This document shows positions 8,215 to 61,580 of a stretch of 64,000 bases of DNA, in pieces (position 1 is the stretch's first letter; every line of letters begins with the position of its first letter). The notes under the pieces were generated by a model, which was given only the letters and a program-made list of their open reading frames with translations, was not told the DNA's origin and searched no databases. This stretch comes from Patescibacteria group bacterium (GTDB lineage: Bacteria; Patescibacteriota; Patescibacteriia; Magasanikbacterales; UBA922): NCBI GenBank assembly GCA_041651535.1, contig JBAZIZ010000003.1, positions 19,357 to 83,356 on the forward strand, written 5' to 3'. A program made the position numbers and the translations under genes.

Positions 8215-8237
8215 AAAAGTTTCAAAATTCCAAAGCC

Positions 8238-19581: not shown

Positions 19582-19583
19582 AA

Positions 19584-23893: not shown

Positions 23894-23959
23894 AAAATAA
23901 AAATTCAAAATTAAAAAGTAAAAATTATTAAATCTAACTTGTCTACCGATAGGCAGAAA

Positions 23960-34384: not shown

Positions 34385-34540
34385 ATTTTTATACTCTTAT
34401 TGCTAAATATTATGAAGCTATTATATAAAAAATGGAGTTAAATGTCAAATACCTGCACAATTTTAGATTTAAGATTTTAGATTTAGGAATTAAAAAATTA
34501 TTTACTTACTTGTTTGCCTAATTACTTGTCAAATATTATA

Positions 34541-37516: not shown

Positions 37517-37560
37517 AGGTGCTTGCACCGCCAGGTTGTTTATTCAACCTGGTTTTTTAT
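37517..37560. terminator. double hairpin (ggtgcttgcacc; ccaggttgtttattcaacctgg) plus T7, closing the rSAM-peptide unit
   Basis: T-run on the plus strand. Convergent with the stop of the minus-strand HExxH gene. Confidence 0.5.
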
Positions 37561-38154
37561 TTTATGCCAAAAAGCAAAAACTGAAATATCAAATTCTTTT
37601 TTAAATAATTTATTAAAAGTATTTATTGTTTTTTTTGAAAGGGCTATTTTGTCTAAAAATGATTTAAATTTTTCTTCTCCAAAAACTACAATTAAACTAT
37701 TTACCATATGAAAACCAAAATTATAAATATAAGCATTATTTTTTTCATAATAAAATTTCAAATTTTTTACCCCTTTAAAATTTGTTTTTTTATTTTGTCC
37801 AGCTAAAAAACAGGCCAAACCTTCATTTAACCACAAAGGTTTTAAATCGTTTATTTTTTCTTTAAAATAAAGATGAACTAATTCGTGTTTTAAAGTACGC
37901 CAGTAATCTTCACGATCTTTATGATTTGATTCTTCTAAAAATTTTTCGTAACATAAAATATGAATGTTACCATCTCTTGCCCAACCAACTAGCCAATCAG
38001 GAGTTTCTTTTTTAAAAAATTTATTTATTTCTTTTCTTGAATTATACAAAAATATTTTAGGCTCTTTTATCTTTACAGAAAAAAAATTTTCAAATTCTTT
38101 TTTTGTTTTTTTAAGTAAATTTTTAGTTTTTAAATCATTAATTTTTAGCTTCAT
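37540..38154 (-). CDS. putative zinc metallopeptidase (HExxH)
   Basis: HELVH with downstream WLNEG (possible third ligand Glu); 204 aa, basic, no signal peptide. Confidence 0.45.
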   Translation of the reverse strand: MKLKINDLKTKNLLKKTKKEFENFFSVKIKEPKIFLYNSRKEINKFFKKETPDWLVGWARDGNIHILCYEKFLEESNHKDREDYWRTLKHELVHLYFKEKINDLKPLWLNEGLACFLAGQNKKTNFKGVKNLKFYYEKNNAYIYNFGFHMVNSLIVVFGEEKFKSFLDKIALSKKTINTFNKLFKKEFDISVFAFWHKIKNQVE

Positions 38155-38170: not shown

Positions 38171-38340
38171 AAAAATCTTGTTTACCTGCTAATTCTATTT
38201 TTTCTTCATTAGCACATTCATATTTTACTGAGTATGAAAAAGGTTGTGGGGTACAAGCGCAGATAATTTTAGATTTCTGATTCTAGATTTTAGAATTAAA
38301 AATATTATAACACAAAAATTAGATAAAATGAAAATTTAAC
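38171..38340 (-). repeat. truncated remnant of the giant-gene C-terminal cassette plus its upstream promoter element
   Basis: 38176-38258 matches the 5' 80 bp of the cassette (encoding ACTPQPFSYSVKYECANEEKTELAGK) up to the common breakpoint ...gtacaagc|gcagataattttagattt. The extended -10 motif is at 38304-38316. Confidence 0.7.
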
Positions 38341-38481
38341 TTAATTAAGGCAAAAAATAGTCAAATAACTTGACAAAACTGTTAAAAAGTGCTATAATTT
38401 CTTGTTATGAATATTAGGATATTGTATAATATTTATAGCACATTAGATGGATCTTTTAACAATTTATATTGGGAGTTTACC

Positions 38482-39222
38482 ATGAAAAGTCTTACTTTTA
38501 TTGCAGTATTTCTTTCTTTCTTCGCTGTCGCTTGTGGCGGCAAAGAATCTGATTGTTGTATCGTTGTCGATGACGACGAAACAACGGATGAAGTTACCGA
38601 TGAAACTTCGGATGAAACAGCCGATGGGGCAACTGAAGCTGAAATTGATGAGGTGTCTGATGGAGACATCGTTGAAAATGAAAACGAAACTGATGAAGAT
38701 GAAGAAACACTTGATGAAGATTCAGGAGAGGTTACATATCATGAACCTGAGAATCTGGACGAGTGCCAGAATTCAGTTTGTTCTGAGGTATGTGTAGTCG
38801 AGTGGGATCAAATGGGAAAAGATGTAATCTTTTACCTGTTAAATGGAGATAGTATTGAAAAATACTCTGACTGTCCCGTCAGAATCAAACTGGAAATCGG
38901 ATCAAATGACAAATGTTATACTACGGTTATTGAGACTGCGGGCTGTAATGTTACAGCTGGTTTAGACGGACGAAAAGAAGCAAATTCTTCAATGCCTATC
39001 TCTGGTTTACTAACCTACGGAACCGACAAAGTTTACTACGAATTGTCAGAAACAGATGAAACAATTCAGGAAGATGGAGTTTTTAATTACACGAGATGGG
39101 AAAACTGTATTAACACTAATGGAGTAGATCTATGTGAAAAATACGGTTTGGAAAAAGTTCAAATTGAGGGTGAGAGCTTTGGTCTAGCTTCTGAAGAAAA
39201 ATGGGTTGCCATCTCCCAGTAA
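38482..39222 (+). CDS. acidic Cys-rich lipoprotein, paralog C of the cassette-associated family
   Basis: GGGAG RBS. MKSLTFIAVFLSFFAVAC lipobox, D/E/T-rich linker, LDECQNSVCSEVCVVEWDQ motif, C-terminal ...YGLEKVQIEGE. The ORF track starts further upstream; the first ATG with a signal peptide is 38482. Higher GC than the genome. Confidence 0.6.
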   Translation: MKSLTFIAVFLSFFAVACGGKESDCCIVVDDDETTDEVTDETSDETADGATEAEIDEVSDGDIVENENETDEDEETLDEDSGEVTYHEPENLDECQNSVCSEVCVVEWDQMGKDVIFYLLNGDSIEKYSDCPVRIKLEIGSNDKCYTTVIETAGCNVTAGLDGRKEANSSMPISGLLTYGTDKVYYELSETDETIQEDGVFNYTRWENCINTNGVDLCEKYGLEKVQIEGESFGLASEEKWVAISQ

Positions 39223-39239
39223 TTTCACATTACCCAGGT

Positions 39240-39292
39240 TCCGTTTATCTCATTGTAGATAAACACTTTTGAGCCTGGGTTTTCTTTTTTAT
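39240..39292. terminator. long hairpin (acccaggttccgtttatctcattgtagataaac...gagcctgggt) between convergent lipoprotein C and cassette 1
   Basis: Nested inverted repeats followed by ttttctttttt. Confidence 0.45.
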
Positions 39293-39342
39293 AAAAAATA
39301 CTCTATTATCTAGAGTATTTTATTTTTATTTAATATTTTATT

Positions 39343-39730
39343 TTAATCTTCTGTACTTTCAGGCAAAACTACTAGATAACCATCAAAAGCTGTGAAACTT
39401 TTGTTAAAATTATCGTCTATTATCTTACCACATTTATCAGTATCACAATTCCCTTCTCTACACTCTCCATTACAATAATCCCAATTATCAGTTATCTGAA
39501 CTTTTGGTTGATAATAACAATAATAATCATTGTCTAGTAAGTTATAGGTTTTCTTTAAAGTATTTTTTAAATTGGTACAAAGAGTTGTATCAGTACTTGT
39601 TCCACCAAAACAATGTTCTTCTGTAATATCACCTACTTTTTCTTGTTTACCTGCTAATTCTGTTTTTTCTTCATTAGCACATTCATATTTTACTGAGTAT
39701 GAAAAAGGTTGTGGGGTACAAGCGCGGATA
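39343..39730 (-). repeat. orphan C-terminal cassette 1 of the giant protein (variant tail)
   Basis: Encodes ...ACTPQPFSYSVKYECANEEK...KVQITDNW, ~90% identical to the giant C-terminus, then a different 45-aa Cys-rich tail (DYCNGECREGNCDTDKCGKIIDDNFNKSFTAFDGYLVVLPESTED). The ORF-track start is a TTG inside the -10 box, so independent translation is doubtful. Confidence 0.75.
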
Positions 39731-39870
39731 ATTTTAGATTTATGATTCCAGAATTTAGAATTAAAAATATTATAACACAAAAATTCTGTAAAATAAAAAA
39801 GACCCGAGTCAGTTAAGTAATTTCATTTCTGAAAAAACTAACCAACTCGGGTGGGGATGTGGGATTTATT
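39731..39870 (-). promoter_or_regulatory. cassette-associated element: long imperfect hairpin terminator plus extended -10 TTTGTGTTATAAT
   Basis: 139/140 bp shared with 41232-41370 (minus a 7-bp tagaatt unit). Contains acccgagtcggttaag...ctaaccaactcgggt, which forms a stem on the minus strand followed by ttttttatttt, then the promoter 13-mer. Confidence 0.55.
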
Positions 39871-40762
39871 TAGGGAGTGGAACGAAGTCAATATCCGACC
39901 ACCTATAACACGGGCCTTCTATACCTTCAACATATACTGGTTCATCTCCTTCTTCTTCACACCAATTTATTCCATCATTATTGATACAACTTGTGTAATC
40001 TCCGTAGTTGTATTTTTTTTTCCCTTGCCAAGTTTCACCAGTATCAGAAAAGAAAAAGTAAATTAATGTGCCATAATACGGATTATTAAGGTCTTCTTTT
40101 GTCCCCTGAACAGGTATTTTTTCAGACTCAATTTGTGAATAATCCCAAGCTATTTCTGTATGATCTACAAAGTTCGCATAACATATGTTATGCGAAGTTT
40201 CAAGCCAAATATCAAGATAGCTATCTTTACTATCAATTTCTTCTCCATTTTTGGCTAGATTGAACCAAAAAATCCTTTCTTTTGTCTCCTCATCCCACAT
40301 AAGAAGACAAAGCTGAGAACACGGAGAATCTTTACATTCTTCCAGATTCTGCAGCTTTACAAAACTTGGATCAGCTGGGACCTCATAATCTGTACAATAC
40401 AGGTTACTATCCCAAGCTTCTCTACAGTAGAAAACTTCTGGATCCTGTCCAGAATTTTCTCTGCATTTTCTTTCTCCTTGCCAGAAGCCATCGACACAGA
40501 CAAGTATCCACTGTCCATTATCAACAGTAGAGCACATTCTGTCTCCATCAGTACAAACTGGTTCAGTTGTGTCCTCGTCAGTGGACACTGTATCATCTGC
40601 TTCATCAGTTGATTCGACGACATCTTCATCCGGATTTTCATCTATAGACTCATCAGTCTTAGACTCGTTATCCGGAAGGGTTGGTTCTTCTCCACTGCAT
40701 GATACAGCGAAGAAAGAAAGAAACACAATTACAAAGATAATGCATTTCATGGTAATCTCCAT
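39866..40762 (-). CDS. acidic Cys-rich lipoprotein, paralog B
   Basis: MEITMKCIIFVIVFLSFFAVSCSG lipobox; acidic linker near-identical to paralog A; LEECKDSPCSQLCLLMWDE motif; divergent C-terminal domain. Confidence 0.6.
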   Translation of the reverse strand: MEITMKCIIFVIVFLSFFAVSCSGEEPTLPDNESKTDESIDENPDEDVVESTDEADDTVSTDEDTTEPVCTDGDRMCSTVDNGQWILVCVDGFWQGERKCRENSGQDPEVFYCREAWDSNLYCTDYEVPADPSFVKLQNLEECKDSPCSQLCLLMWDEETKERIFWFNLAKNGEEIDSKDSYLDIWLETSHNICYANFVDHTEIAWDYSQIESEKIPVQGTKEDLNNPYYGTLIYFFFSDTGETWQGKKKYNYGDYTSCINNDGINWCEEEGDEPVYVEGIEGPCYRWSDIDFVPLPK

Positions 40763-40858
40763 CTATAAAGTTATATAAATCCCTTGTAAAGAACAATATT
40801 AAATATGATTATTTAACAATATAATATAGCACTTTTTTGCTCTTTTGTCAATATTAAC

Positions 40859-41231
40859 CTAGTTTTCTGTGTTTTCAGGTAAAACTACGAGATATCCATT
40901 GAATTTTGTAAATGATTTGTCATTATCCTTATTACATTCCTTAGGACTTGTTCCATAAAGCCCGTTATTACAATACCCCCAATTATCAGTTATCTGAACT
41001 TTTGGTTGATAATAACAATAATAATCATTGTCTAGTAAGTTATAGGTTTTCTTTAAAGTATTTTTTAAATTGGTACAAAGAGTTGTATCAGTACTTGGTC
41101 CACCAAAACAATGTTCTTCTGTAATATCACCTACTTTTTCTTGTTTACCTGCTAATTCTGTTTTTTCTTCATTAGCACATTCATATTTTACTGAATATAG
41201 GAAAGGTTGTGGAGTACAAGCGCAGATAATT
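40859..41231 (-). repeat. orphan C-terminal cassette 2, an exact copy of the giant gene 3' end
   Basis: 40859-41221 is identical to 42187-42549 (the stop codon and last 121 codons of the giant gene). No in-frame start, because an extra tagaatt unit shifts the upstream TTG/ATG out of frame. Confidence 0.85.
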
Positions 41232-41370
41232 TTAGATTTATGATTCTAGATTTTAGAATTTAGAATTAAAAATATTATAACACAAAAATTCTGTAAAATA
41301 AAAAAGACCCGAGTCGGTTAAGTAATTTCATTTCTGAAAAAACTAACCAACTCGGGTGGGGATGTGGGAT
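41232..41370 (-). promoter_or_regulatory. cassette-associated terminator/promoter element, copy 2
   Basis: Identical to 39731-39870 apart from a tagaatt indel and 1 SNP. Extended -10 motif at 41274-41286. Confidence 0.55.
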
Positions 41371-42090
41371 TTATATTACAAACACAAAATAAAATGATCC
41401 TCCGAAGAAAGTTTCCACACCTTCTATCTCAACGACTTCCAATCCAAATTCTTTACATGTATCACGACCTGCCTGAGCGTCATAACACTCTACATAACCC
41501 TCCATTCTCAATTCTTTTTCTTCTCTAAAAAAGAAGCTGAATTGTCTCTCAGTTCCCAAATAAGAGACATGTTCAAGAGGTATTTTATAGCCTTCGGTAA
41601 TTGCATCTTCTTTTCCAATAAATGAATTTTCTGGAACAGAGAAAAAACATTTTTCAAAATTATCCACAAAAAGTTTAAACTTGAAACTTCTTTGGTCATC
41701 ACAGTTTACGCTATTACTTGTCTTTTTTTCACACCATTTACCGCTATTTGCTCCTTCATCCCACAGAAGGAAACAAATTTCTGAACAAGAAGAATTTTTG
41801 CATTCTTCCAAGCTTTGTAATTCTGTATAGACAATCTCCTGATCATCTATATCAGAATCATTTTCTTCTTCAGATTCAGTATCGATTTCAGTTGTGTCCT
41901 CGTCATTGGACACTGTATCATCTTTTACTTCATCATTTTCTTCGACGACATCTTCGTCTGGATTTTCGTCTATAGACTCATCAGTCTTAGACTCGTTATC
42001 CGTAAGGTTTGGTTCTTCTCCACTGCATGATACAGCGAAGAAAGAAAGAAACACAATTACAAAGATAATGCATTTCATGGTAATCTCCAT
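41371..42090 (-). CDS. acidic Cys-rich lipoprotein, paralog A (immediately downstream of the giant gene)
   Basis: Same lipoprotein signal and acidic linker as paralog B; LEECKNSSCSEICFLLWDE motif; C-terminal ...CKEFGLEVVEIEGVE. Confidence 0.6.
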   Translation of the reverse strand: MEITMKCIIFVIVFLSFFAVSCSGEEPNLTDNESKTDESIDENPDEDVVEENDEVKDDTVSNDEDTTEIDTESEEENDSDIDDQEIVYTELQSLEECKNSSCSEICFLLWDEGANSGKWCEKKTSNSVNCDDQRSFKFKLFVDNFEKCFFSVPENSFIGKEDAITEGYKIPLEHVSYLGTERQFSFFFREEKELRMEGYVECYDAQAGRDTCKEFGLEVVEIEGVETFFGGSFYFVFVI

Positions 42091-42186
42091 CTATAAAGTT
42101 ATATAAATCCCTTGTAAAGAACAATATTAAATATGATTATTTAACAATATAATATAGCACTTTTTTGCTCTTTTGTCAATATTAAC

Positions 42187-45100
42187 CTAGTTTTCTGTGT
42201 TTTCAGGTAAAACTACGAGATATCCATTGAATTTTGTAAATGATTTGTCATTATCCTTATTACATTCCTTAGGACTTGTTCCATAAAGCCCGTTATTACA
42301 ATACCCCCAATTATCAGTTATCTGAACTTTTGGTTGATAATAACAATAATAATCATTGTCTAGTAAGTTATAGGTTTTCTTTAAAGTATTTTTTAAATTG
42401 GTACAAAGAGTTGTATCAGTACTTGGTCCACCAAAACAATGTTCTTCTGTAATATCACCTACTTTTTCTTGTTTACCTGCTAATTCTGTTTTTTCTTCAT
42501 TAGCACATTCATATTTTACTGAATATAGGAAAGGTTGTGGAGTACAAGCACGGGTAGCATCACCAAAGAAATTTTCTTCTGCATTTTTTATACACGAATT
42601 ATTTGCACATTCACTATTTTCTTTACAAGTGATTTGTGTGCCAGAACATCTACCAATTTCGTTTGGTTCATCATCACAATATGGTTTTCTATTTTTAAAC
42701 AAACCTTTTGTACCACTTCCTCCTATCACTTCATCATTTTTTCCAGTATCTAAAATAACTGTTTTTATCGGCATTTGATCATCATCAGCATAAGCGTAAA
42801 AAGATAAATAAGCTTCAAAAGGAGAATTTTTTATAATGATTTTTTTGCCTGTACTATTGTTTACTGAAGTCTCTGTAATATTATCAATACTTAAATTATC
42901 AAAATCTCCTAACACATATTTTTTATTTATTTCATCATATTTTACTCCAAAAATTCGTGGTGAATTTATAGAATAAAGTTTTTCAAAGAAAGTTTGTCCT
43001 GTTCCACTACTCAAATGATCAATTAATGAAGTTCCGGGTGCTTGTTTATCTTTAGATTCATCAAATTTATAATAAGCGGCAGCAAACACATCCATAAAAG
43101 ATGTATTATTTGGAAAAGATGCAGTTATAAATTCATGTTCATTTAATGTAGTAAACTGTTTATATTCTGGATTAATATCAGACGCGGTAAAATCAAGTGC
43201 TTTAAACAAACCATTTGTTTTTGTTGGGATTCCAGAAGTTTCAAAATCATAGTCAATTATTTGGCTTTTATCTATTACTGAAAAATAATAAAATCTATCA
43301 AAATCTATTACTGTTGTTTTATTATTTTGCAAATCCGTCTCTGTTTTAAAAACATCATCTGTTCTTTTTGTTAAAGATCCAAAAGGAGCATTTGAATAAT
43401 TTTTTATTTTTGAAACTGAATCCACTAAAGTTTCTATGTAAATATCAGAATAAGTGGTAGCATTTTTTAAATTTTTAGTTAAAGTTTTATCCAAACCTTT
43501 TTTTCCAGACCACAAAATATCTGTTCGCGGTTTTGTGTTATTATTTAACAAATTATTATCATAAAGTACTCCATATTCAGTACATTTACTATTTAATTCT
43601 ACGATAACTGCAAGACGCATACCATAACTTTCGCCGTCTGAATTATCATGAGCATCTATAAATCTAGATATATAGCCAAGAAAATCTCCATCTTCATTAA
43701 AATCCAAACCAATAGCTAATAAAGTTGCATTTTCTTCTTCATTCAATCTATCTGAATCCCCACGTCCAAAATAAAAAGGATCAGATTGTTTATTAATAGT
43801 ATTTTCTAATGATATATCTTGACAATTATTTTCTGTGCACAGAGAATTTAAAGTGGTTTTAGAATTATTTTGATTTAAAATAGAATCTGAATAAAAATAT
43901 CCAACATATCTTGTTTTAATTTCATTCTTTCCTGTATCGTTATACAATTCATAGGTAAAATTAAAATCACTATTATTTTTAAAGAGAACAGTATTTTCTT
44001 TTTCTAATAAATAAGAAACAAAATTTAAACCCGAATTAGTTGAAGATCCTGAGGCCATACAAAATTTTTCATTATAACCTGTACAATAATTTTTAACAGG
44101 TGCATATAATATTTTGTTTGTGCTTTGTCTTAATTTATTAAAATCAATAGTAAAAGTTTCTGCATCTAAAAGACCTATGGTTCTCCCTTCTGCTCCAGAT
44201 ATATGTTCAATTGGTACAATATGAATTTTTGCTATTTCTTCTTCTTTAATTTTATTTTCTAGTTCACTTATATAAATAAAACTATTATTTAAGTTAGATC
44301 CATTAAAACTTTTAAAATTAGGGGATAAAAATAAATTATAAAGATTAAATTTACTTGCTTTTTCTCCATCTCCACTATCATTACCATCATGATAAAAACC
44401 TAAAGTTTCAATTTTTGTTCCAGAATTATATGAATTATATGAAGAAGAAGTTATTTCTAAATTACTAGAATTAAAACGTATTGGGTGAATTAAAGTACCC
44501 ACATCACCATATTCGCCTGAATCTTGACCTACAGCTGGAGCAAATGATTTTACTATTCCATTTGTTAAAACTGTATAATAAGGATCATTTACGGCATCAA
44601 ATCTTAATATTCTAATATTTTTTAAATCAATTTGTCTATTCTCTTTATAAGTATCAATATTTTTTGCCCATTCATTTAACATGATATATTGTTGTTTTTC
44701 ATCGTTACTATTAATAACTTCTTTATATTTATCTGAAACTACGCCACCTCCGCCAGTGTTTTCTTCTTCTGCTTCAAAATACAGACCGGCTACTTCTTGT
44801 CTATTAAAATAATTATAAATTTTAAAGCTACATTCTCCTGAATTATAGTCATCATTACAATCGGCTGTAAAAACTGGTCTATTAAAAGCTAAATTATATT
44901 GATTATTTAATATAGTATCATTTATAGTTTGTCCATTAATCACAGTTCCTAAACCATATTCAGGAGTTTGTCCTTGTTCAGTACTATTTAAACAGAAAAC
45001 TTGGCCAAAATCATTTGAATCGGAATTCCCTTCAGTTGGATTACCTTCTGGGTTATAACCTGCTTCTGGGTTATAATTATATAAATCCATTTGTGAAATA

Positions 45101-48100
45101 CTACGGTCAGAATAATACCAAGTCAAACAAGGATAATAAGTTTTATTACCAGCTTTTTCGCCACGACTTTTATCATATTCCATACAAACACCAGTCACTC
45201 CATAATATGTTCCCTGTTGTTCTATTTTATTACATACTCCTCCTTCACCACAATCTGTATCAATAAAACAGACATCACCTGTTTTTTCACCAATTCCAGA
45301 ACAAATTCCTTGTGGAATAAATGCGTAATCAGCATTACTTTGTTTAAAATCTAGAGGCCAGTAATCAATAGTACCATCTTTATATTCTACTTTTGTATAA
45401 AGACAACTGCCAAATCCAACTGAATCATCTGGATTAGTAAAAATATTTGAACTATATTGATAATAATTTGCATTATCATATTTTGATTTTATTTTTGTCC
45501 ATTCAGTTCTATTAAAATCAGTGTCGTCTAAATTAAAATAATATCTGCCACAACTTACTTCACTTGAATCTTCATCATCTTCATTTAAATTAAAACAATC
45601 AATATATTTATCTGAATCAAAATTAGCTATTAAACGAATATCAAAAGGTGAATCTTCTTCAGGGAAAGTTTTACAAGATTCTGCATATAAATTTTCTTTT
45701 ATTTTATCTCCAGATAAAACAGCTATTAAATCTTGTTCATTTGTTACTCCTACAAAACTTGTTTCATTTTTTCCATCTACTGGTAAAATACATTTTCCAT
45801 CGTAACACACTCCAGAGGAACCATCTTTTCCAGTACAAGCAGAAAAATCAGGTTTTGTGATTGATCCAGATCCAAATAAAGCTGGTATTTTACAACTATT
45901 ATTATCAGATTCATAAATCAAATAAGCACGGGATGCATTACCATCTTGCAAATAAATAGTTTTATAACCATCCAAATTTCTTTTATTCAAAAAAGCATAA
46001 CCAGTATAATCTTTGTCATACCAACTTGGATAAGCAAATTCACTAATTCTTTCTACATATTTATTTTTATCCAAAATCTTTTCGTCATCATCAGGTTTAT
46101 TTTGTAATTTATAATTAGCACAAACTTCCACTTTGTTTCCATCACTATCTTCTTCAATAGTTTTACTAGTACATTCTAAATATTGTTCACATTCTCGATC
46201 TATTTTTACTTTTATGAGCAAATTTGATTGATTGTTTGTGTCTGAAACTGGAGAAACTAGATTATAATCATTTTCTCGGCTATTTTTATAAGTAGAAGTT
46301 GCATTATATAATTTATTTGGATATTCTTCTCTATCTAATAAAATACAACCTTGTTCTTGACTAACCATGCCACCACAACTAGCAGTCTGAGAAGTTAATT
46401 TATCATTATATAAATTATAGTATTCTTTTGGTTGATTATCAGAATTCAAATCAGCCCAATCTAAAAATTTTGTACAACCATTATTTTCTTCATCACATAA
46501 ACCGACTTTACCTTGATAACCAGCCGAGCCATTTGAAGGTAAATCACCGCAAGGCAATTCGCCTATCTTGTCACAAAAACCTTTTTCACCACATTGTGAA
46601 TCTTCTGTACAATACATATTTGAAGGATAAGAACAATAGCCAATAGCATCCACAACAACACACATCGCGCCTTCAGGACAGTCCCCGCTGTTATAACATA
46701 ATCCTGGTGGATCTAATTTACAAGAACCTACCCCTGACATATACCAAGCTGGGTCATCATTACCTACTTTTTTATATTCACACAAAGTATTTCCAGCTAA
46801 AACTGGATCTTTGAAATAAGAAATTAGATTATTTGCTGAGTAACTACCACAACCAACCAAGCTATCGTTACACAAAATTTCACTATATAATTCTGGTTTA
46901 TTTAATAAAAATACATCACCAAAAACATAAGAATCGTCATAATTTTTTCCAGCTTTGATTTGTGATTCTTTTCCCATTTCTGTACAACCAATGTCATCAC
47001 TATTACAAATATGATCATTTTTTAAAGTCAAATATACAGGTTCAGAAGTCGGTGGAATTACAACAGTAGAAGTAACTATTTCTAAATTTTTTGTATACAA
47101 CCCGGCAATATTTAAAGTGTAAAAATCATAACTATCTGATATTTTTATTTTTTTAGCAAACACTGGATTTTTTATAAATCCAAAATTAAATTCAGAAACT
47201 GAACTGATTATGTTATTATCTTCTGAATCTAAAACACAACCTGTAGAATTATTACAAAATAAATTATAAACAGCATAATATTCATCTCCATAATCATCGT
47301 TTCTATTATAAGTATCTTGAAGTTTTGCACAACCAATCGCATCTTCCCGACATAATTTTGCAAAACCAGTAAGATTAATAACACTGCCATCATTTTCTGT
47401 ATCACTATTTACTGTATAAGAACTACAACCTAAATATCTACCTGGAAATCCATCAAGCGGAGTATTATCACAAACTTCTGGAACATCATAACCTAAATTT
47501 GTTTTCCAAGAATCTTTGATAACAGCTAATCGATCATCTGCAGTATCTCCTACTTTATTTAAACGAATATTATCTAAGAAAAATATTTTATTAGTAACAT
47601 TTGATTCAAAAAATAATTGAACTGAAGCAGTGTTAATTCCATTTACTAAAATTGGTCCTAATTTATATTCTTGCCATTCATCATTTATTGACAAAGGACG
47701 CAAAGCACTAGTCAAATTATCAGTAGTTAAATATGTTTCATTTCCAGATTGAGAAAAATAAACATTTAAATTTTGGATATCACCTTTTGCCCAAAAAGTA
47801 AGTTCATACCATTTGTCATCATTTAAATTATCAAACAAAATTCCAGCGTTAAAATTATAATAAGCTGTACCACCAATAACTCGAAGAGAATGTCCACCAA
47901 CATAAGTTGATTCAGTTTTTATATCAACATCTCCCTGACTACAAGATCCACTTGATCCATTTTCACACCAATTTTCTTTTAAAATACTTAGAGCATTTTC
48001 ATCATCGCCTGCTGGTTCAAAATCATTTTCAAAAGTTTTATGTAAATTATTTCCTGTATTACCAATATATAATCGACAACCATCTGCTGAAGCTGGACAA

Positions 48101-51100
48101 GATCTAGCTTCTTCTGGAATAGAATAATATTCACAAGCTCCTTTATCATTTCCTTGATCAACATAAAAACCATTATCATAACAACGTAGACAATTATTGT
48201 TTTGCCATTTTCCACCTTTTTGTAAACAAATATTTTGATTATTTATATCATCATCTTCATACATGTTCAAATCAGTTTTACGATAAAGAGAACATTGATC
48301 AGAAACAGTAATTGTTTTATTTAAACTGCGATAAAAAATATTTCCAGCATCATCATAAAGTGCTGTACAATTATATTTATCATAATCTTCCACTGCTTCA
48401 CCATTTATATATTTATTATATTTTTCTCGATTACAAGTATTGTAACTTTCATTCAAAGAAATACTACTATCATTTTCATAAGCTGGGGAACCAACTTCAA
48501 AATGAGATTTAATTTCTGCTGAAACAGAAGTAAGATTTTCAATAAAAATTTCATCTTCTGAACTTATTTTTTTCAAATTATGTTTTTTCAAAACATAACC
48601 AGTTTTATCACTACCTTCCCAAGAATAAAATACAGATGCATTTTCACCATCAGGTAATTCACATTTTTTTGTGTCTGAAAAATAAACCAAGCTATTGGCT
48701 CCATTTCCAACTTCATCAACTTTTGTGAATTCAGAACAACCAGCATAAGTTGCTTGGCAAGTTTCAGCAGTACTTGGAATAAAATATAAAGGGAAAACAG
48801 AATCTTCAAAAGCTGAAGCATTTTGTTTGAATGTATCATAACCCACACAAGTTTCTGGACACCAATTTTGTAATTCAACTTTTCCACCTATTTCTTCTCC
48901 ACTATTTACTTCAGTATAACTTGCACAACCAACTTCATCTGGTAAACAAACACCAGCAAAATCTTCACATTCTTTTGACCTATCAGCTAAATAAAGTAAA
49001 TCAGCTTTTGATTTTGGCCATTCGATTAGCGAAGTAGTTTTATCTACATCATAACAAGCTAAATAATCAGGAGCTTTTTTTAAATGAATTTGATCTTGAT
49101 AAGTACTAGATGTAGTTTCTAAAGTTTCTGGATTATAACTATATTCTTTTTTCTCCCAATTAAATAATTCGCAACCATTAGCATCAGAAGAACAAGAGTA
49201 TTGCTCAGCTTTAGAATTTAAAAACAAATTTTGATTTCCTCCGAGAGACGCACCTTTTATATCATTGTTCAAATAAAAACTATTTATCCAATTTCCAGAA
49301 TCATTTTTATTTAAACTGTAAGCTTGGCAACCAACTGCATCAGCATTACAATCTCCGTATTCTAAAGTACGTGATAAATAAGAAGCTTCATCGCCAGTTA
49401 AATTATTAGAAAAAGTCTTACAAGTATTATAAATTGGTTCACAAGAATCTCCATAAAATTTCCAAGTATTTTTTTCTTGCAAACAATAACCGTATTTTTC
49501 ACATTTGCCATTATTATCTTCTACTACGCAAGAATCATAATCAATAACTTGTTCTTGGCGAGTATTTGTACCATCCAAAATTTCTGAACTGTAGGTTTTT
49601 AATTTTATTCTAGCTTCTGGAGCTTTGATTATCCAATTTGGATTTATAAGACCATAATAATTACCTTCAGTATAATAAGCATTTACAACTGTTTCCAAAG
49701 TTGGGTTTCCTAATTCTGTAGCTTTTTCGGCAACGATTTCAAAACCAAGAGGAATTATTCTAGCTTTACGCATTTTTTGTAAATTTGAATAACATAATCC
49801 TTTTGTATAACAATCTTTTGTTTGATTTTCATTTGAATATTCAGAATAAAATATTTGATTACCATTAATTATTCCTTCATCAATCGCTTGTTTAATCGTC
49901 ATTGGATTACCAGTATTGTATCTATTAATTACTGTTTGCCAACTGGAATCCATAACACAATTATCATTAGCAGGTTCATCTGGACAACTGACAAATTGTG
50001 AAACATAATCGTATTTTTCCAAACTCAAATTTGGTAAATCTTTTATCAAATAAGAGTAAGCATTTTCAACTGCTTTGCGATTATAATTTAAAACACTGGC
50101 GTAAGGATTTGTTACTGATTCTTTCCCTGATTCTTTGCTAGTTGGGAATAAACCATCTTGTAAAATATTTTGTGCTAAAGTTGAAACAAAAGTATTAGCA
50201 AAAGTAGAAATTGCTGTTGGAATAATTTGCCAACCGCTCACTGCATACATTCCTGCCATTTGAGTAGCACTCATTTCACCCTGTTGTTTAGCTCCAACTG
50301 CTTCTGATTCAGTTTTAACTGTTTGGGCTGGGGTTTTTATTTCTCCAGAAATCACATCTTTTACAGCTTTAAAACCATCACCTTCGGCTCTTTCAGCATT
50401 TGCTGATTCAGTTGCTTTAGCGTTCAATGAATCGATATTACTTTTAGCAACTAAAACTGTTCCTAGACCACCTTGAGTTACATCCAGATTAGCGTTGAAA
50501 ATTTCAGCAGCTGAATATTTATCTTGAACATTATCCCATCCACTTTTCATTTCATTCCAAGAACAAGATGGCTGTGGACCTTTTTCACTGCCTGAACCAT
50601 ATTCATTACTATAAATATTGCTTAAACCAACTTGTAAACTTAATTGAAAATTTAAATCTGGTGGAGTACAAAAATTCATCCCCAATACTCCTTTTCCAAA
50701 ATCAGCAATGGCTGACGCTGCAGAATCCAAAGCTACATTAGCAAAATAATCTCCTGGACTTTCTTGAAAAACAGCTGGTTTTTTTCCAACTGCTGAGTCT
50801 GCTAGATAAGTTGCAGCATCATAAGCTAATTTTCTAGTAAAATAAGAAGCAGCATTTATCAAAGAACCCAAAGCAGAACTTAATAAAGTATCTAAAATTT
50901 GATCTTTTATGTCCGCTGTTTTTTCTGGCAAACTTTCAATAACTGAAACGGGAAAACCTGCTTTTGCAATTTGTGGTCTAAACATGCCAATTGCAAAAAA
51001 ATTAAAAAATAAAAAAATACTGAGCAAAATCGACAAGGAAATTTTTTTAGCTCGATTTTTTTTAAACATAATTTTGTAGTTAGTATTTATCAAAAAATAA

Positions 51101-51111
51101 AAATTTACCAT
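42187..51111 (-). CDS. giant (2974-aa) secreted Cys/Asn/Tyr/Asp-rich surface protein
   Basis: Single uninterrupted ORF. Probable start at M15 (51069), giving MFKKNRAKK-hydrophobic-AKAG signal-like N-terminus. Numerous Cys-rich modules. No recognisable Rhs/YD, PAAR or enzymatic motifs. Confidence 0.8.
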   Translation of the reverse strand: MVNFYFLINTNYKIMFKKNRAKKISLSILLSIFLFFNFFAIGMFRPQIAKAGFPVSVIESLPEKTADIKDQILDTLLSSALGSLINAASYFTRKLAYDAATYLADSAVGKKPAVFQESPGDYFANVALDSAASAIADFGKGVLGMNFCTPPDLNFQLSLQVGLSNIYSNEYGSGSEKGPQPSCSWNEMKSGWDNVQDKYSAAEIFNANLDVTQGGLGTVLVAKSNIDSLNAKATESANAERAEGDGFKAVKDVISGEIKTPAQTVKTESEAVGAKQQGEMSATQMAGMYAVSGWQIIPTAISTFANTFVSTLAQNILQDGLFPTSKESGKESVTNPYASVLNYNRKAVENAYSYLIKDLPNLSLEKYDYVSQFVSCPDEPANDNCVMDSSWQTVINRYNTGNPMTIKQAIDEGIINGNQIFYSEYSNENQTKDCYTKGLCYSNLQKMRKARIIPLGFEIVAEKATELGNPTLETVVNAYYTEGNYYGLINPNWIIKAPEARIKLKTYSSEILDGTNTRQEQVIDYDSCVVEDNNGKCEKYGYCLQEKNTWKFYGDSCEPIYNTCKTFSNNLTGDEASYLSRTLEYGDCNADAVGCQAYSLNKNDSGNWINSFYLNNDIKGASLGGNQNLFLNSKAEQYSCSSDANGCELFNWEKKEYSYNPETLETTSSTYQDQIHLKKAPDYLACYDVDKTTSLIEWPKSKADLLYLADRSKECEDFAGVCLPDEVGCASYTEVNSGEEIGGKVELQNWCPETCVGYDTFKQNASAFEDSVFPLYFIPSTAETCQATYAGCSEFTKVDEVGNGANSLVYFSDTKKCELPDGENASVFYSWEGSDKTGYVLKKHNLKKISSEDEIFIENLTSVSAEIKSHFEVGSPAYENDSSISLNESYNTCNREKYNKYINGEAVEDYDKYNCTALYDDAGNIFYRSLNKTITVSDQCSLYRKTDLNMYEDDDINNQNICLQKGGKWQNNNCLRCYDNGFYVDQGNDKGACEYYSIPEEARSCPASADGCRLYIGNTGNNLHKTFENDFEPAGDDENALSILKENWCENGSSGSCSQGDVDIKTESTYVGGHSLRVIGGTAYYNFNAGILFDNLNDDKWYELTFWAKGDIQNLNVYFSQSGNETYLTTDNLTSALRPLSINDEWQEYKLGPILVNGINTASVQLFFESNVTNKIFFLDNIRLNKVGDTADDRLAVIKDSWKTNLGYDVPEVCDNTPLDGFPGRYLGCSSYTVNSDTENDGSVINLTGFAKLCREDAIGCAKLQDTYNRNDDYGDEYYAVYNLFCNNSTGCVLDSEDNNIISSVSEFNFGFIKNPVFAKKIKISDSYDFYTLNIAGLYTKNLEIVTSTVVIPPTSEPVYLTLKNDHICNSDDIGCTEMGKESQIKAGKNYDDSYVFGDVFLLNKPELYSEILCNDSLVGCGSYSANNLISYFKDPVLAGNTLCEYKKVGNDDPAWYMSGVGSCKLDPPGLCYNSGDCPEGAMCVVVDAIGYCSYPSNMYCTEDSQCGEKGFCDKIGELPCGDLPSNGSAGYQGKVGLCDEENNGCTKFLDWADLNSDNQPKEYYNLYNDKLTSQTASCGGMVSQEQGCILLDREEYPNKLYNATSTYKNSRENDYNLVSPVSDTNNQSNLLIKVKIDRECEQYLECTSKTIEEDSDGNKVEVCANYKLQNKPDDDEKILDKNKYVERISEFAYPSWYDKDYTGYAFLNKRNLDGYKTIYLQDGNASRAYLIYESDNNSCKIPALFGSGSITKPDFSACTGKDGSSGVCYDGKCILPVDGKNETSFVGVTNEQDLIAVLSGDKIKENLYAESCKTFPEEDSPFDIRLIANFDSDKYIDCFNLNEDDEDSSEVSCGRYYFNLDDTDFNRTEWTKIKSKYDNANYYQYSSNIFTNPDDSVGFGSCLYTKVEYKDGTIDYWPLDFKQSNADYAFIPQGICSGIGEKTGDVCFIDTDCGEGGVCNKIEQQGTYYGVTGVCMEYDKSRGEKAGNKTYYPCLTWYYSDRSISQMDLYNYNPEAGYNPEGNPTEGNSDSNDFGQVFCLNSTEQGQTPEYGLGTVINGQTINDTILNNQYNLAFNRPVFTADCNDDYNSGECSFKIYNYFNRQEVAGLYFEAEEENTGGGGVVSDKYKEVINSNDEKQQYIMLNEWAKNIDTYKENRQIDLKNIRILRFDAVNDPYYTVLTNGIVKSFAPAVGQDSGEYGDVGTLIHPIRFNSSNLEITSSSYNSYNSGTKIETLGFYHDGNDSGDGEKASKFNLYNLFLSPNFKSFNGSNLNNSFIYISELENKIKEEEIAKIHIVPIEHISGAEGRTIGLLDAETFTIDFNKLRQSTNKILYAPVKNYCTGYNEKFCMASGSSTNSGLNFVSYLLEKENTVLFKNNSDFNFTYELYNDTGKNEIKTRYVGYFYSDSILNQNNSKTTLNSLCTENNCQDISLENTINKQSDPFYFGRGDSDRLNEEENATLLAIGLDFNEDGDFLGYISRFIDAHDNSDGESYGMRLAVIVELNSKCTEYGVLYDNNLLNNNTKPRTDILWSGKKGLDKTLTKNLKNATTYSDIYIETLVDSVSKIKNYSNAPFGSLTKRTDDVFKTETDLQNNKTTVIDFDRFYYFSVIDKSQIIDYDFETSGIPTKTNGLFKALDFTASDINPEYKQFTTLNEHEFITASFPNNTSFMDVFAAAYYKFDESKDKQAPGTSLIDHLSSGTGQTFFEKLYSINSPRIFGVKYDEINKKYVLGDFDNLSIDNITETSVNNSTGKKIIIKNSPFEAYLSFYAYADDDQMPIKTVILDTGKNDEVIGGSGTKGLFKNRKPYCDDEPNEIGRCSGTQITCKENSECANNSCIKNAEENFFGDATRACTPQPFLYSVKYECANEEKTELAGKQEKVGDITEEHCFGGPSTDTTLCTNLKNTLKKTYNLLDNDYYCYYQPKVQITDNWGYCNNGLYGTSPKECNKDNDKSFTKFNGYLVVLPENTEN

Positions 51112-51135: not shown

Positions 51136-51798
51136 TTAATCAGAATTATTAACTAAGCTGTATTCTTCTTTAATCAATTTTTCAGCTACACTCAGCAAAG
51201 TTTTATCATCAATTTTATTTAATTCTTCTTCACTTATCTGTCCAGTTGAAATTAAAATCGAACGCAAAGTTGCTGGGTCTTTTAACAATTCATTCATATC
51301 AATGTCATTTTCATTTCCTTCTCCTAATTGACTTTTTACCAAAAGATCGGCAGGCGTAGCTAAAGAATCATCACCTAAAGGATTTAGATCAATAGTTGAG
51401 CTACTATATTCTGCTGAATTTGAATTTATAATACTTGAACCAGTAGCACAATTTGCTCCAATCGGACAATTTGGATCTTCTCCTTGATCAATTTCCACTT
51501 TATCTTCTACACCATCAGAATCACTATCAGGTAAATAAGGACTTGTTTCATAAAAATATAACTCTTCATAATCGTTTATACCATCATGATCTGTGTCTAT
51601 TTGTTGTAATTTTGAATTTTCATCATAATCAGACAAATTTGAAGTTTCACCATTTTCTGAACTTACTTTCAAAGCATAAGGCCCATAAATATTTCTTTTC
51701 ATCTGCATAAAACCAAGCCCAACTACTAAAATTGCAAAGAAAAACAACAAAACAAAGCCGATTTTTTGCTCTTTATTTAATTTATTTTTTTCTTCCAT
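51136..51798 (-). CDS. membrane-anchored protein with thrombospondin-type-3-like Ca-binding Asp repeats
   Basis: One TM, then DTDHDGINDYEE and DSDSDGVEDKVE (DxDxDG) repeats. 24 nt upstream of the giant gene on the same strand. First ATG with sensible N-terminus is at 51798 (ORF track 51849). Confidence 0.5.
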   Translation of the reverse strand: MEEKNKLNKEQKIGFVLLFFFAILVVGLGFMQMKRNIYGPYALKVSSENGETSNLSDYDENSKLQQIDTDHDGINDYEELYFYETSPYLPDSDSDGVEDKVEIDQGEDPNCPIGANCATGSSIINSNSAEYSSSTIDLNPLGDDSLATPADLLVKSQLGEGNENDIDMNELLKDPATLRSILISTGQISEEELNKIDDKTLLSVAEKLIKEEYSLVNNSD

Positions 51799-51823
51799 AC
51801 ACAAAAAATTACTTTCAAAATTA

Positions 51824-51836
51824 TTATAACACAAAT
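51824..51836 (-). promoter_or_regulatory. extended -10 promoter motif TTTGTGTTATAAT upstream of the TSP3-like/giant gene pair
   Basis: Same 13-mer as at 3081, 23881, 38304, 39769 and 41274. Confidence 0.4.
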
Positions 51837-52091
51837 AATTAAAAAACAAAAGAACAAAAGTGCTTTAAGTGAACATCACCACGCCCACCATCGCAAGCAT
51901 AAGCTTGCTTAGGCGTTACGGGCGGAAAAGTAAAAGTTAGGAGTCAAAAATTAAAAGGAAAAAATAATTGATACGGTTTTACTATTGTTTTTTATTGTAA
52001 AAAAAATTTAAAAACAATGAACAAACACAAAAAGAAAAACAATTTAAAAAAATGACTTTTAACTTTAGACTTTTAACTTTATATTTTTGTT

Positions 52092-56669: not shown

Positions 56670-59600
56670 TTATTTTTGACTGAATTTTTGATAAATAACT
56701 GGCAAGACAACAAGAGTCAAAACTGTTGAAAACGAAAGACCAAAAACTATTGCATAACCAAGCGGCCCCCAAGTTGGATCAGACATTGCCAAAGGTATCA
56801 TACCAAGCACGGTTGTAATAGTCGTCAAAATAATTGGACGTAATCTGGAATGTCCTCCATCTTTTATAGCATCGTCAAGATTGAAACCCTTTTCTCTATT
56901 CACATTTATTTTTTCAATTAAAATAATCGCATTTTTAACTACAATTCCTACTAAAGCAACTATTCCAATTGCACCGGGAAAACTAAGTGGTTGTCCCATA
57001 AAAACTAATCCTGGTAATACACCAATTAAGGCTAAAGGTACAGTAACTAAAATAAATAAAGTTTGTTTAAAAGAATTAAATTGTAAAACTAATAAAATAC
57101 TAATTAAAATAATTCCCAAAATCATTGATCTGAAAATATCTTGAAAAGATTCTGCCATATCTTCATTTTCTCCACCATATTTTATAGTATAACCTTCTGG
57201 TAAAACAATATTATTTTTTATTTCTTTTTTAGCTTGATTAAAAATATCTTGCGATGTCTTTCCTTCTTCAATATCACCAACTATTTCCATGATTCTATTT
57301 CCATCTTCATGTTGTATTAAAGAACGACTAAAATCAAGATTACTTTTTATAAAAGAAGCAATTGGTATATTACCTTGACTACTAGCAATTGTTATTGATT
57401 CAATATTATTCAAATCAATTTGTTTATTGCTCATTCCATCATTTATTCCATCTAAATCATATTTTACTAAAACGTTTATTTCCTGACCATCTTTGCGAAT
57501 TACAGTTGCATCTACTCCAGCGATAGCACTTCGTAAAACAGAAGCAATTTGTGAAGTGGAAATTCCATACATTTGAGCTTTTACTCTATCAATTTCCAAA
57601 ACAAATTCTCCAGGTGAATCTTGATTAGAAAAACGAACACTTCGAGTACCTGGTATATTTTCAACTATCTGTTTAATCTGTAAAGAAATTTCATCCAAAA
57701 TTTCTAAATCTTGGCCTTGAACTGAAATTGATATTGGATCAGAACTTGGTGGACCCATCATATCTTGAGTCAATTCATACTCAATACCATCAATATTTTT
57801 AAGTTCTTCATTATATTTTTCAATAAAATTCAGACTGCCGTAATTTCTTTTTTGTTTTAAATTAACTACAATTCCAGCGTAATTACTATTTCCCGAACTA
57901 TTTGAACTTAAAACACTGCCCCCACTCGTCTTTGAACCAATATTAGTCAAAAATGACTCTACATTTTCATCTGCTAAAAGTAAATCTTCAATTTCAGTAA
58001 TTTTTTGACTAGTCATTTCTAATGGTGTTCCAGCTGGTAATTGAAAATTCATGTAAACTTTTGGTTCATTACCTGTTGGAAACATACTTACTTTTAAAAC
58101 TCCGCCTATAGGCAAAGCTAAACTTAAAATAAAAGCAATTGAAACTATCCGCAACAATTTTTTTGATTTTTTTTGGTCTGCAAGTAAAGAACTAATCAGA
58201 CTATCATATTTTTCATTTATATTATCCATCATTTTTTCTTTCCAATTTTTTTGATTTTCTAAAATTTGTTTTTGTTTTTTTTGTTCTGGTTCAAAAGGAG
58301 TTTGCCAAGAATCTTCAATATTAATATCTTTTTTATCTTTAAAAAGTAAAGCTCCGAATGTTGGTATCAAAGCTAAAGCAACAAAAAGAGAAGAAATTAA
58401 AACAGCACTGATTGTAATCGGAATACTTACCATAAATTTTCCGATTACCCCACTGACACCTAACAAAGGTAAAAAGGCAAAAACCGTTGTTAAAGTTCCG
58501 GCAACTAAAACCCATTGATATTCTTTAACTGAAGCCATACAGGCTTCCTTCACTTTCATTCCTTTATTTAAATTAACATTTATACCCTCGGCTACCACAA
58601 TTGCATTATCTACTAAAATTCCCAAAGATAAAATCAAACAAAATAAAGTTAAAAAATTTAATGTATAACCTGCGACTGACAAAAAAATAAAAGACATCAA
58701 AAAGGTAGTTGGCACTGACAAACCAGCCAACAAAGCTTCACGCCAACCTAAAAATAAAAACAATAAAACTACTACTATAATTACAGTTTCAATTCCATTC
58801 ACAAATAAATTAGACAAATCATTTTTTATATCTTGTCCAGCATTTTTACTAAAATCAAAACTTAAATCATCAGGGTATTCACTTTTTATTTTATCTAATT
58901 TAGACAATACACTATCAATAATTCTGATTGTATCTCCACCGCTAGTTTTATATAAATTTAAAGAAATTGCTGTCTTGGTTTCTTCTCCATTTTTACTTAA
59001 TCTTGACAATGTTTGTAATTCAGAATAATCACTGTAAACATTAGCAACATCTTTAAGTAAAATTGCTGTATTAGAAATGTTAGCAATAGGAATTGTTTTA
59101 ACTTCATCAATATTCAAAAGACGCCCAGCAAATCTAACTGTATATTCCATACCAGAACTTTCAATCGAACCAGCTGGAACATCACTATTAGCTGAACCAA
59201 TTGCTTGTACTACTCCTAAAAGAGAAAGTCCATAATTATCTAATTTAGCTTTATCGATTATAACTTTTATTTCTTCATCTTGCCCACCTAAAACATCAAC
59301 AGAACTTATACCAGAAACTATTTCAATTTCATTTTTAATATCATCGGCATAATTTTTTATTTCCGAACGAGAATAAGGGCCACTTATAGAAAAAGTCAAA
59401 ATCGGTTCATCATCCAAACTGATTTGTTTAACTGTAGGATCTTTAGCATCATCAGGCAAATCGCTTTTTACTTCATCAATCTTGTCTTTTAAATCATTTA
59501 TTTTTTCTTGTGCATCAGCATTAGCATCAAATTGAACAAATATAAATGATAAACTATTTTTTGATTGAGAAGTTAACTCTTCAACATCATCTAAACTTTT

Positions 59601-61575: not shown

Positions 61576-61580
61576 ATAAA

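Follow-up and report, generated by a model that had tools for sequence, protein, structure and literature searches.

Arrays of orphan toxin tails and immunity genes (PMC3150448, PMC4287609) comprise a gene for a large exported protein whose C-terminus varies past a conserved motif, followed downstream by 5'-truncated, start-less copies of this C-terminus, each with a small, separately expressed gene behind it, and they are remodelled by homologous recombination. An array resembling these in layout was analyzed here in a window of 64,000 nucleotides, i.e., the whole stretch of DNA considered, from an uncultured, ultra-small Patescibacteria group bacterium (assembly GCA_041651535.1, contig JBAZIZ010000003.1, positions 19,357 to 83,356 of the forward strand). 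It contains a giant surface-protein gene, start-less copies of the 3' end of this gene (cassettes) and three lipoprotein genes, named lipoA, lipoB and lipoC. The reading preferred here, although held tentatively, is that the locus is a lineage-specific, recombining surface-variation array, composed of silent tip cassettes and of stalked lipoproteins that likely work with the tip of the giant protein.

Other systems are similar to the locus in part. Variable lipoproteins of Mollicutes, such as Vlp of M. hyorhinis, Vsp of M. bovis and Vsa of M. pulmonis, are likewise encoded by tandem paralogues with a near-identical upstream region and signal peptide and with divergent mature parts. They also belong to small-genome, host-dependent cells without an outer membrane, and homopolymer tracts could switch members off. 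Silent-cassette systems, as in Neisseria (pilE/pilS), Borrelia (vlsE) and Mycoplasma genitalium (MgPar), share with the locus a single complete expression gene accompanied by several partial copies that lack promoter and start codon. These copies keep the frame and carry conserved blocks around a variable, Cys-flanked loop, the pilin equivalent of which is the C-terminal disulfide loop. Finally, phage tail-fibre tip modules and the PilV shufflon of R64 provide alternative C-terminal tips for one long surface or adhesion protein. In the phage modules an accessory gene follows each tip, and inverted units have their counterpart in the one inverted unit of the window; the shufflon is attached to a conjugation apparatus, i.e., a type IV secretion system (T4SS).

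The window is AT-rich (GC content of 0.28) and also carries housekeeping genes (rpsB, tsf, secG, ValRS, TyrRS, enolase and RNase J). The three lipoproteins are labelled as hypothetical proteins by NCBI, in the annotation of the Patescibacteria group bacterium metagenome-assembled genome (MAG). The repeat unit of the array consists of a 3' cassette of the giant gene without start codon, followed by a consensus sigma-70 promoter, a Shine–Dalgarno (SD) sequence, a lipoprotein gene and a terminator. Along the minus strand, the giant gene is followed by the promoter, lipoA, its terminator, an extended -10 element and cassette 2, and then by the promoter, lipoB, its terminator, a -10 element and cassette 3. 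At the end of the array lie lipoC, on the plus strand with its own promoter and terminator, a further -10 element, the truncated cassette 4 and an unrelated gene encoding 204 aa. The features of the array are as follows (related contigs are given by L numbers here and below):

42187..51111, minus strand: giant surface-protein gene, 2974 aa, with an N-terminal membrane anchor and 96 Cys
42187..42551, minus strand: 3' segment of the giant gene, repeated in the cassettes, with the VQITDNWGYC motif, the variable loop 'tail 1' and the conserved end FNGYLVVLPENTEN plus stop
42151..42179, minus strand: lipoA promoter, TTGACA-17-TATATT with an upstream TG, 11 of 12 consensus positions
41371..42090, minus strand: lipoprotein A, likely start at 42078 giving 235 aa (NCBI MFA5211263.1, WC414_02020)
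41295..41356, minus strand: intrinsic terminator of lipoA, a long hairpin (CCCGAGT...ACTCGGG) plus T-run, conserved in L004, L015 and L007
40859..41223, minus strand: cassette 2, the last ~120 codons of the giant gene with a tail identical to that of the giant gene; -10 element upstream at 41274-41288
40823..40851, minus strand: lipoB promoter, identical to the lipoA promoter
39866..40762, minus strand: lipoprotein B, likely start at 40750 giving 294 aa (NCBI MFA5211262.1, WC414_02015)
39790..39851, minus strand: terminator of lipoB, with the extended -10 element next to it at 39769-39783
39343..39725, minus strand: cassette 3, with a different loop, 'tail 2' (NGECREGNCDTDKCGKIIDDNFNKSFTAFDGYLVVLPESTED)
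38370..38398, plus strand: lipoC promoter, TTGACA-17-TATAAT with TG, 12 of 12 consensus positions, homologous to the A and B promoters (inverted repeats I1 and I2)
38482..39222, plus strand: lipoprotein C, 246 aa (271 aa in the NCBI version, MFA5211260.1, WC414_02005)
39233..39283, plus strand: terminator of lipoC, of the hairpin-plus-T-run type found after lipoA and lipoB
38176..38260, minus strand: truncated cassette 4, encoding ...CTPQPFSYSVKYECANEEKIELAGKQD, with the -10 element upstream at 38304-38318; end of the array

The original prediction, which had been made from the sequence of the window, placed each lipoprotein gene beside a C-terminal cassette of the giant gene. This was confirmed for the giant tail, cassette 2 and cassette 3, and the truncated cassette 4, which had been missed, was added. 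Cassette 4 lies within the 5' leader of the 204-aa gene (37540-38154) and explains the copy with 61% identity in the repeat listing. Since promoter, lipoC and terminator sit between cassette 3 and this cassette remnant, unit C is an ordinary unit in inverted orientation. No inverted repeats flanking unit C were found, and an active invertible switch for this unit is thus unlikely.

The lipobox signals, acidic linkers and Cys motifs described for the three paralogues in the original prediction were recovered exactly, as were their open reading frames (ORFs). For lipoA and lipoB the likely start is the second ATG (MKCIIF...), with GGAG located 6 nt upstream and in agreement with the NCBI calls, and the lipoC ATG at 38482 has GGGAG upstream. 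The lipobox reads IVFLSFFAVSC in A and B and AVFLSFFAVAC in C, matches the PROSITE-type rule and ends in a Cys at residue 18 from the SD-supported start. The signal peptides conform to type II (PROSITE PS51257-type), with the form MK-CIIFVIVFLSFFAVS-C in A and B and MK-SLTFIAVFLSFFAVA-C in C, and so do those of the relatives. The linkers comprise 62 aa (A), 110 aa (B) and 64 aa (C), with 48%, 30% and 47% Asp plus Glu, respectively, and only 1–6 Lys plus Arg. Using a degenerate DNA pattern of the Cys motif, three matches were obtained in the window versus 0.00 expected. As claimed before, the GC content of the lipoprotein genes is above average (0.35–0.39 versus 0.28 for the window). The GC content at third codon positions (GC3) is raised as well (0.27–0.30 versus a median of 0.134 for 40 ORFs), and thus the GC excess is not merely due to acidic codons. 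GC-biased gene conversion as the source of the high GC3 was rejected, since the equally recombining cassettes show normal GC3.

The linker of lipoB harbors a Cys-rich insert of about 65 aa (residues ~67-132, about 40367-40562) with the spacing C-x6-C-x11-C-x10-C-x12-C-x11-C. A homologue of this insert is present in the E' lipoprotein of L021 (764-1651) and absent from the B orthologues of L004 and L016; judged by this distribution, the insert behaves as a putative movable extra domain. Similarity of the lipoproteins or of the insert to the giant protein was considered and dropped as not significant (best E-value of 0.012–0.02). Tandem Repeats Finder returned only 2.2–2.5 copies of weak 12-nt repeats in the linkers and no internal tandem repeats in the mature parts.

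Two further observations concern the reading frames of the family. A poly-A tract lies within conserved QGKKK codons. It is in frame as A9 in lipoB of the window (40013-40021), where it is one of only six homopolymers of at least nine bases in 64 kb, and in frame as A11 in L004, L016 and L007 (L007:889-899). In L014 (11-20) and L020 (737-746) the tract is A10, and the D-type gene is frameshifted. Slipped-strand phase variation, decay of the gene or errors of assembly could account for these length differences. In a third population, the family member at L021:2111-2839 contains an in-frame TGA directly before a T8 run and is split into the called proteins P0008 and P0007; this gene is a pseudogene, a switch or a case of read-through.

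The promoters of lipoA, lipoB and lipoC are the three best sigma-70 matches of the region. Since each gene has its own top sigma-70 match, an SD sequence and a conserved hairpin terminator, each is probably expressed independently from its own promoter, likely constitutively. The extended -10 element is a 15-mer, TTTTTGTGTTATAAT, present in five exact copies on the minus strand (38304-38318, 39769-39783, 41274-41288, 23881-23895 and 3081-3095). From its three copies in the array, the silent cassettes would be transcribed as the leader of whichever lipoprotein gene comes next. Its candidacy as an array-specific signal was dropped, since it is a generic promoter that occurs five times in the window. 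An intergenic heptamer-repeat motif (CATAAATCTAAAAT-like) occurs seven times, on either strand, versus 0.36 expected (4086, 9364, 34460-34487, 38266, 39731 and 41229), and units 2 and 3 differ by one heptamer in copy number. In L014 (289-355), 8.4 copies of the 8-nt tandem repeat AAGCAAGT lie between the extended -10 element and the cassette, as compared to far fewer (about two, by eye) in the corresponding region of L004 and L015. This is a variable repeat in the transcribed leader.

The divergent C-terminal domains that had been ascribed to the three paralogues turned out to be one domain. The C-terminal ~155–165 aa of A, B and C are homologous, with 26–32% identity and six conserved Cys (BLASTP E-values of 1e-13 for A-B, 3e-14 for A-C and 1e-20 for B-C). 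The GLE.V.IEG tail said to end each protein is present in A and C and is replaced by GDEPVYVEGIEG in B, and it is not terminal, since 13–17 residues follow in each protein. Structure prediction, which had been proposed as a check, gave agreeing AlphaFold models for the domains of B (predicted local distance difference test score, pLDDT, of 82.6; predicted template modelling score, pTM, of 0.75) and C (pLDDT of 75.2; pTM of 0.68), with an identical order of secondary structure elements. In both models, two short helices bear the three-Cys motif and are followed by about eight antiparallel strands, another short helix and, at the end, a long strand, a topology predicted to be an up-and-down β-meander of calycin-like type. 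The top Foldseek matches of both models were weak and belonged to calycins, namely avidins and lipocalins, which are eight-stranded up-and-down β-barrels of similar size. Several bacterial members of the calycin superfamily are lipoproteins. However, the matches were not significant (E-value of at least 0.04, template modelling (TM) score of at most 0.41), and the N-terminal three-Cys helix pair and the six conserved Cys are absent from calycins. No ligand-binding signature was found in the lipoprotein domains.

The ratio of nonsynonymous to synonymous substitution rates (dN/dS) of orthologous domains was 0.14 (B/B'), 0.32 (C/C') and 0.17 (B'/B''), which indicates purifying selection, and dS was saturated in the comparisons between the paralogues A, B and C. 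Thus, the domains are old and functional and not rapidly diversifying, contrary to the rapid diversification of the protein bodies assumed before. Neither the three lipoproteins nor the giant protein nor the ORF upstream of it had a match above threshold in Pfam, NCBIfam, PADLOC or PHROGs, and sequence searches of PDB with the lipoproteins and the giant protein yielded no match. Below threshold, the NCBIfam matches of the lipoproteins were exclusively to N-termini of Mycoplasma lipoproteins. A HMMER profile search of 1.84 billion representatives recovered eight true clusters of the family, and a search of 5.8 billion proteins recovered seven clusters at 90% identity; all members come from a single narrow clade of Patescibacteria. 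A motif scan returned five metagenome contigs, all in three JGI assemblies (prefixes Ga0075120, Ga0075122 and Ga0208904). Among viral contigs, neither the lipoprotein motif nor the motif of the giant gene was matched.

The giant gene would act as the expression site, and its 3' end recurs downstream. The only Pfam match of its product, to CBM_4_9, was weak and below the cutoff. Cassette 2 has no in-frame ATG, GTG or TTG and is not listed as an ORF, and the sole in-frame start candidate of cassette 3 is a TTG inside the promoter element. Short cassettes with an ATG, from which separate peptides of 50 aa might be made, occur in L004 and L015. The cassettes have conserved flanks, VQITDNWGYC on one side and F-x-GYLVVLPENTEN-stop (F-x-GYLVVLP-x-NTE-x-stop) on the other, with a variable Cys loop of 20–30 aa between them. 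At least ten loop variants were present in the window and the related contigs, and these fall into two classes with either one extra Cys ('NNGxYG...C') or three ('NGxCxxGxC....C'). All complete cassettes are in frame to the conserved stop and vary in length by whole codons (43–53 aa from the VQITDNW motif). For orthologous silent cassettes (cassette 3 of the window versus that of L004) dN/dS was 0.22. Since intact frames and this value are unlike what passenger pseudogenes would show in a genome of 28% GC, the cassettes seem to be maintained for what they can encode. Unlike in the silent-cassette systems described above, expressed lipoprotein genes lie between the cassettes, what varies is the very end of a protein of about 3000 aa, at its C-terminus, and the transfer of loops into the giant gene is a proposed step.

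Even distant homologues of the giant protein retain the motif VQITDNWG(Y/W)C, with variable tails after it. A variable secreted domain, as originally envisaged, is reduced to the Cys loop between conserved flanks, and no toxin domain was detected in the variable C-terminus by Pfam, NCBIfam, PADLOC or PHROGs or by the PDB sequence search of the giant protein. For the C-terminal 400 aa of the giant protein, no homologue was found in a word-indexed protein database. The ORF directly upstream of the giant gene (51136-51849, minus strand) encodes a small, membrane-anchored, acidic protein with thrombospondin-type-3-like Asp repeats (DTDHDGINDYEE, DSDSDGVEDKVE) and weak sub-threshold matches to MtsD and CglD; it may belong to the surface apparatus of the giant protein.

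Footprints of recombination were found within the array and between populations. Units 1 and 2 are 100% identical over 541 bp (42549-42009 versus 41221-40681), comprising the cassette, tail, stop, promoter, signal peptide and 27 codons. Beyond this tract, identity is about 95% through the linker and then falls to the level of unrelated sequence; the identical tract adjoins lipoA and lipoB bodies that share only about 27% of their amino acids. The pattern would fit either gene conversion or duplication, and the conserved export part of the original prediction reflects this recent tract. Between L015 and L004, identity is 97% over 1.7 kb up to the cassette, where the loops differ and different units follow. 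L015 and L018 join to give the order giant tail, B', cassette, B'', cassette. L014 and L016 carry different cassettes ahead of one lipoprotein 5' end, and L021 shows the order E, cassette, E', cassette, F. One lipoprotein body can be found behind different cassettes.

The interleaved layout is conserved in at least three populations or species. In L004, from a second species, the giant tail, B', a cassette and a convergent C' are interleaved as in the window, and the same layout occurs in metagenome contigs of two other populations (L014–L018, L020 and L021). All family members with enough flanking sequence adjoin a cassette, with L007 as the exception. Lipoprotein paralogues spread widely without cassettes, on which the original prediction would have foundered, were not found among the seven clusters from 5.8 billion proteins; only L007 lacks an upstream cassette, within its 346 bp of flank. 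The giant protein itself is homologous over most of its length (26–29% identity) to other giant proteins of Patescibacteria, including one from a Candidatus Uhrbacteria MAG. In five distant homologues of the giant gene, neither a second copy of the motif nor a lipoprotein gene was present within 10 kb. Since the distant homologues lack both modules, cassettes and lipoproteins occur jointly in one narrow clade.

In L009–L013 (e.g., L013:1700-16771, Candidatus Uhrbacteria MGEK01000001.1), homologues of the giant gene lie directly upstream of a conserved T4SS-like cluster. This cluster encodes a polytopic protein of ~900 aa, a protein of ~700 aa, a PrgI-family (VirB3-like) protein and a protein of ~231 aa. 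The giant gene of the window is not adjacent to such a cluster. A published survey reported no PrgB-like adhesin in T4SS loci of Patescibacteria (PMC12102498), and the giant protein family is a candidate for this adhesin role.

The preferred reading of a recombining surface-variation array would work as follows. The lipoproteins would be exported by the type II signal peptide and anchored by a lipid on the outer face of the single membrane, as predicted from their sequence. The polyacidic stalk of 60–110 aa would hold the domain off the membrane, and the protein would end in a disulfide-stabilised domain, predicted as a Cys-rich helix pair and an up-and-down β-meander of about eight strands. 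Each lipoprotein gene would be expressed singly from its own promoter. The cassettes are untranslatable as they stand yet intact in frame; because of this frame and the conserved flanks around a variable Cys loop, they look like donors for swapping the C-terminal tip of the giant protein. Homologous recombination among the repeats of cassette, promoter and signal peptide would homogenise the 5' parts of the lipoprotein genes. It would also add, delete and invert units and reassort cassettes and lipoprotein bodies among strains. At the cell surface, the lipoproteins would then work with the variable tip, by docking, as co-receptors or in tip handling, at the level of the family and not as strictly cognate partners.

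Several observations weigh against this reading. No co-variation between tails and lipoproteins was seen: tail 1 is found, in identical form, ahead of A as well as B, and tails 5, 6 and 7 all precede a single B'' body. In addition, the cassettes behind one and the same B' differ between L004 and L015. At six of six junctions, lipoprotein type went together with the class of the cassette that comes next, but this tentative link broke down on inclusion of L021. Of the cognate-partner interpretation, the link between lipoprotein and cassette stood as real, repeated and conserved, while a one-to-one pairing was absent and the candidate partners are all homologous to each other. In L007 the upstream neighbour is unrelated and no cassette lies within the 346-bp upstream flank; the conserved promoter and terminator are kept there, and the contig ends before any downstream cassette could appear. 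Homologues of the giant gene in other Patescibacteria work without such lipoproteins. With respect to GC3, the lipoprotein genes reach twice the value of the interleaved cassettes and of the giant gene, which hints at a separate origin. The 541-bp identity could stem from simple duplication, and Foldseek searches of PDB with the B and C models gave no significant neighbour (best E-values of 0.04 and 0.23, TM score of at most 0.41).

Among the alternatives, an artificial tandem order, made by collapsing or chaining strain variants at the repeats, is scarcely credible. It is the NCBI assembly that provides the order across the repeats; the contigs of an independent ENA assembly end exactly there, and the two identical 541-bp copies are too long for short reads to span. 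However, the ENA assembly confirms the pieces: contig L001 links lipoA to the 5' junction specific for cassette 2 (terminator, -10 element, cassette), which could not come from the giant gene itself, and L019 holds the block lipoB, cassette 3, lipoC and rpsB. The order of the window is the sole linear path that uses all pieces, and the identical interleaved layout was assembled independently in other populations. A competitor, though rather unlikely, is an independent repertoire of variable surface lipoproteins in the manner of Vlp, Vsp and Vsa, serving as coat or ligand binders of a wall-poor, host-dependent cell, with the giant-gene fragments as passengers that supply homology. The tandem paralogues with near-identical upstream region and signal peptide, the strong promoter of each gene, the GC3 differing from that of the cassettes, the missing tail-to-lipoprotein pairing and the sub-threshold matches to Mycoplasma lipoproteins all favour it. 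So do the coding poly-A tract, rare among the homopolymers of the window and in frame in L007 versus frameshifted in L014 and L020, and the in-frame stop in L021. Passengers should, however, decay or become homogenised, whereas frame, Cys pattern and conserved flanks are intact in ten or more different loop variants, and dN/dS between species is 0.22. Moreover, the lipoproteins have a folded domain under purifying selection, neither hypervariable nor a repetitive coat, and their mature parts lack internal tandem repeats. The comparison with Mollicutes was one of layout, and there is no sequence homology. Neither an invertible promoter, nor inverted repeats flanking a unit, nor a promoter poly-A switch was found at the array, the genes are interleaved with fragments of another gene, and the poly-A differences may reflect assembly error or gene decay.

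That the lipoproteins are assembly or folding factors specific for the tips, each folding or disulfide-bonding the Cys loop of the adjacent tail outside the membrane, is improbable. In Mu S/U and in tailocins with fibre plus chaperone, a chaperone is encoded after each alternative fibre tip. By analogy only, the alternation of a variable C-terminal tip with an accessory gene, the extracytoplasmic and Cys-rich nature of both presumed partners, and the inversion in the terminal unit, reminiscent of invertible fibre segments such as Mu G and P1 C, would fit. In contrast to the phage modules and the shufflon, no recombinase gene, site-specific or other, and no inverted crossover sites were found at the array, all units but one are direct, and the accessory proteins are lipoproteins with promoters of their own, whichever tail occupies the expression site. 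One-to-one pairing and similarity to known chaperones are also missing. Still less probable is a polymorphic toxin of the CdiA-CT/CdiI, Rhs or MafB type with orphan modules of toxin tail and immunity, in which each lipoprotein would be the cognate immunity protein. The large secreted protein, its motif-delimited variable C-terminus and the start-less fragments, each followed by a small expressed gene, are comparable to orphan modules (PMC3150448, PMC4287609). Unlike these, the array carries no toxin domain, as no defence model matched and only 20–30 aa vary. Two different lipoproteins come after one identical tail, and the same lipoprotein comes after different tails. The candidates for immunity belong to one homologous family, whereas immunity families for different toxins are unrelated. 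The array belongs to a monoderm Patescibacterium, and distant giant homologues, which also have the motif followed by a short variable tail, lack a downstream partner and sit next to a T4SS-like cluster instead. We infer that the lipoproteins are not toxin immunity proteins.

Elsewhere in the window, a complete diversity-generating retroelement (DGR) is located at 6609-8966:

~6609-6700, plus strand: DGR template repeat
6778-7134, minus strand: Avd-like four-helix-bundle ORF
7117-8184, plus strand: DGR reverse transcriptase (RVT_1, 5.5e-24; motif IGNLTSQ)
8238-8966, minus strand: DGR target gene, the 3' end of which (~8280-8370) differs from the template solely at template adenines

The GC3 of the target gene (0.384) is the maximum of the window. 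The DGR was rejected as the cause of the cassette variation, since the cassettes do not differ specifically at adenines and the DGR comes with a target gene of its own. At 56670-62171 (minus strand), genes for a TetR regulator, an HlyD-family protein and an AcrB-family resistance-nodulation-division (RND) pump (ACR_tran, 2.5e-201) were found. This genome belongs to Patescibacteria, presumably without an outer membrane, and a TolC-like gene was not seen nearby. Two tandem iPGM-family paralogues of 512 and 531 aa are encoded at 18043-21179 (minus strand), one of which is far more diverged from the Pfam model.

How Patescibacteria recognise and hold their hosts is largely unknown, and surveys of T4SS genes found no adhesin (PMC12102498). 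The locus offers testable candidates, namely a giant surface protein with an apparently exchangeable tip and a previously unannotated family of stalked, disulfide-rich lipoproteins. A further-reaching proposal, which must be regarded as doubtful, is that this is the first cassette-based surface-variation system of Patescibacteria: the C-terminal Cys-loop tip of the giant, T4SS-associated protein would be altered through gene conversion with the silent cassettes as source, and co-evolving lipoproteins would read, dock or complement the tips, thereby setting host attachment of the epibiont or evasion of recognition by host or phage. The locus also cautions against taking every array of C-terminal cassettes and small genes for toxin and immunity. 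An interaction of the giant tip with the lipoproteins would make them a novel type of matched variable pair at the surface of a bacterium; without it, the locus would still represent mycoplasma-like concerted evolution of surface lipoprotein genes in another lineage with reduced genomes.

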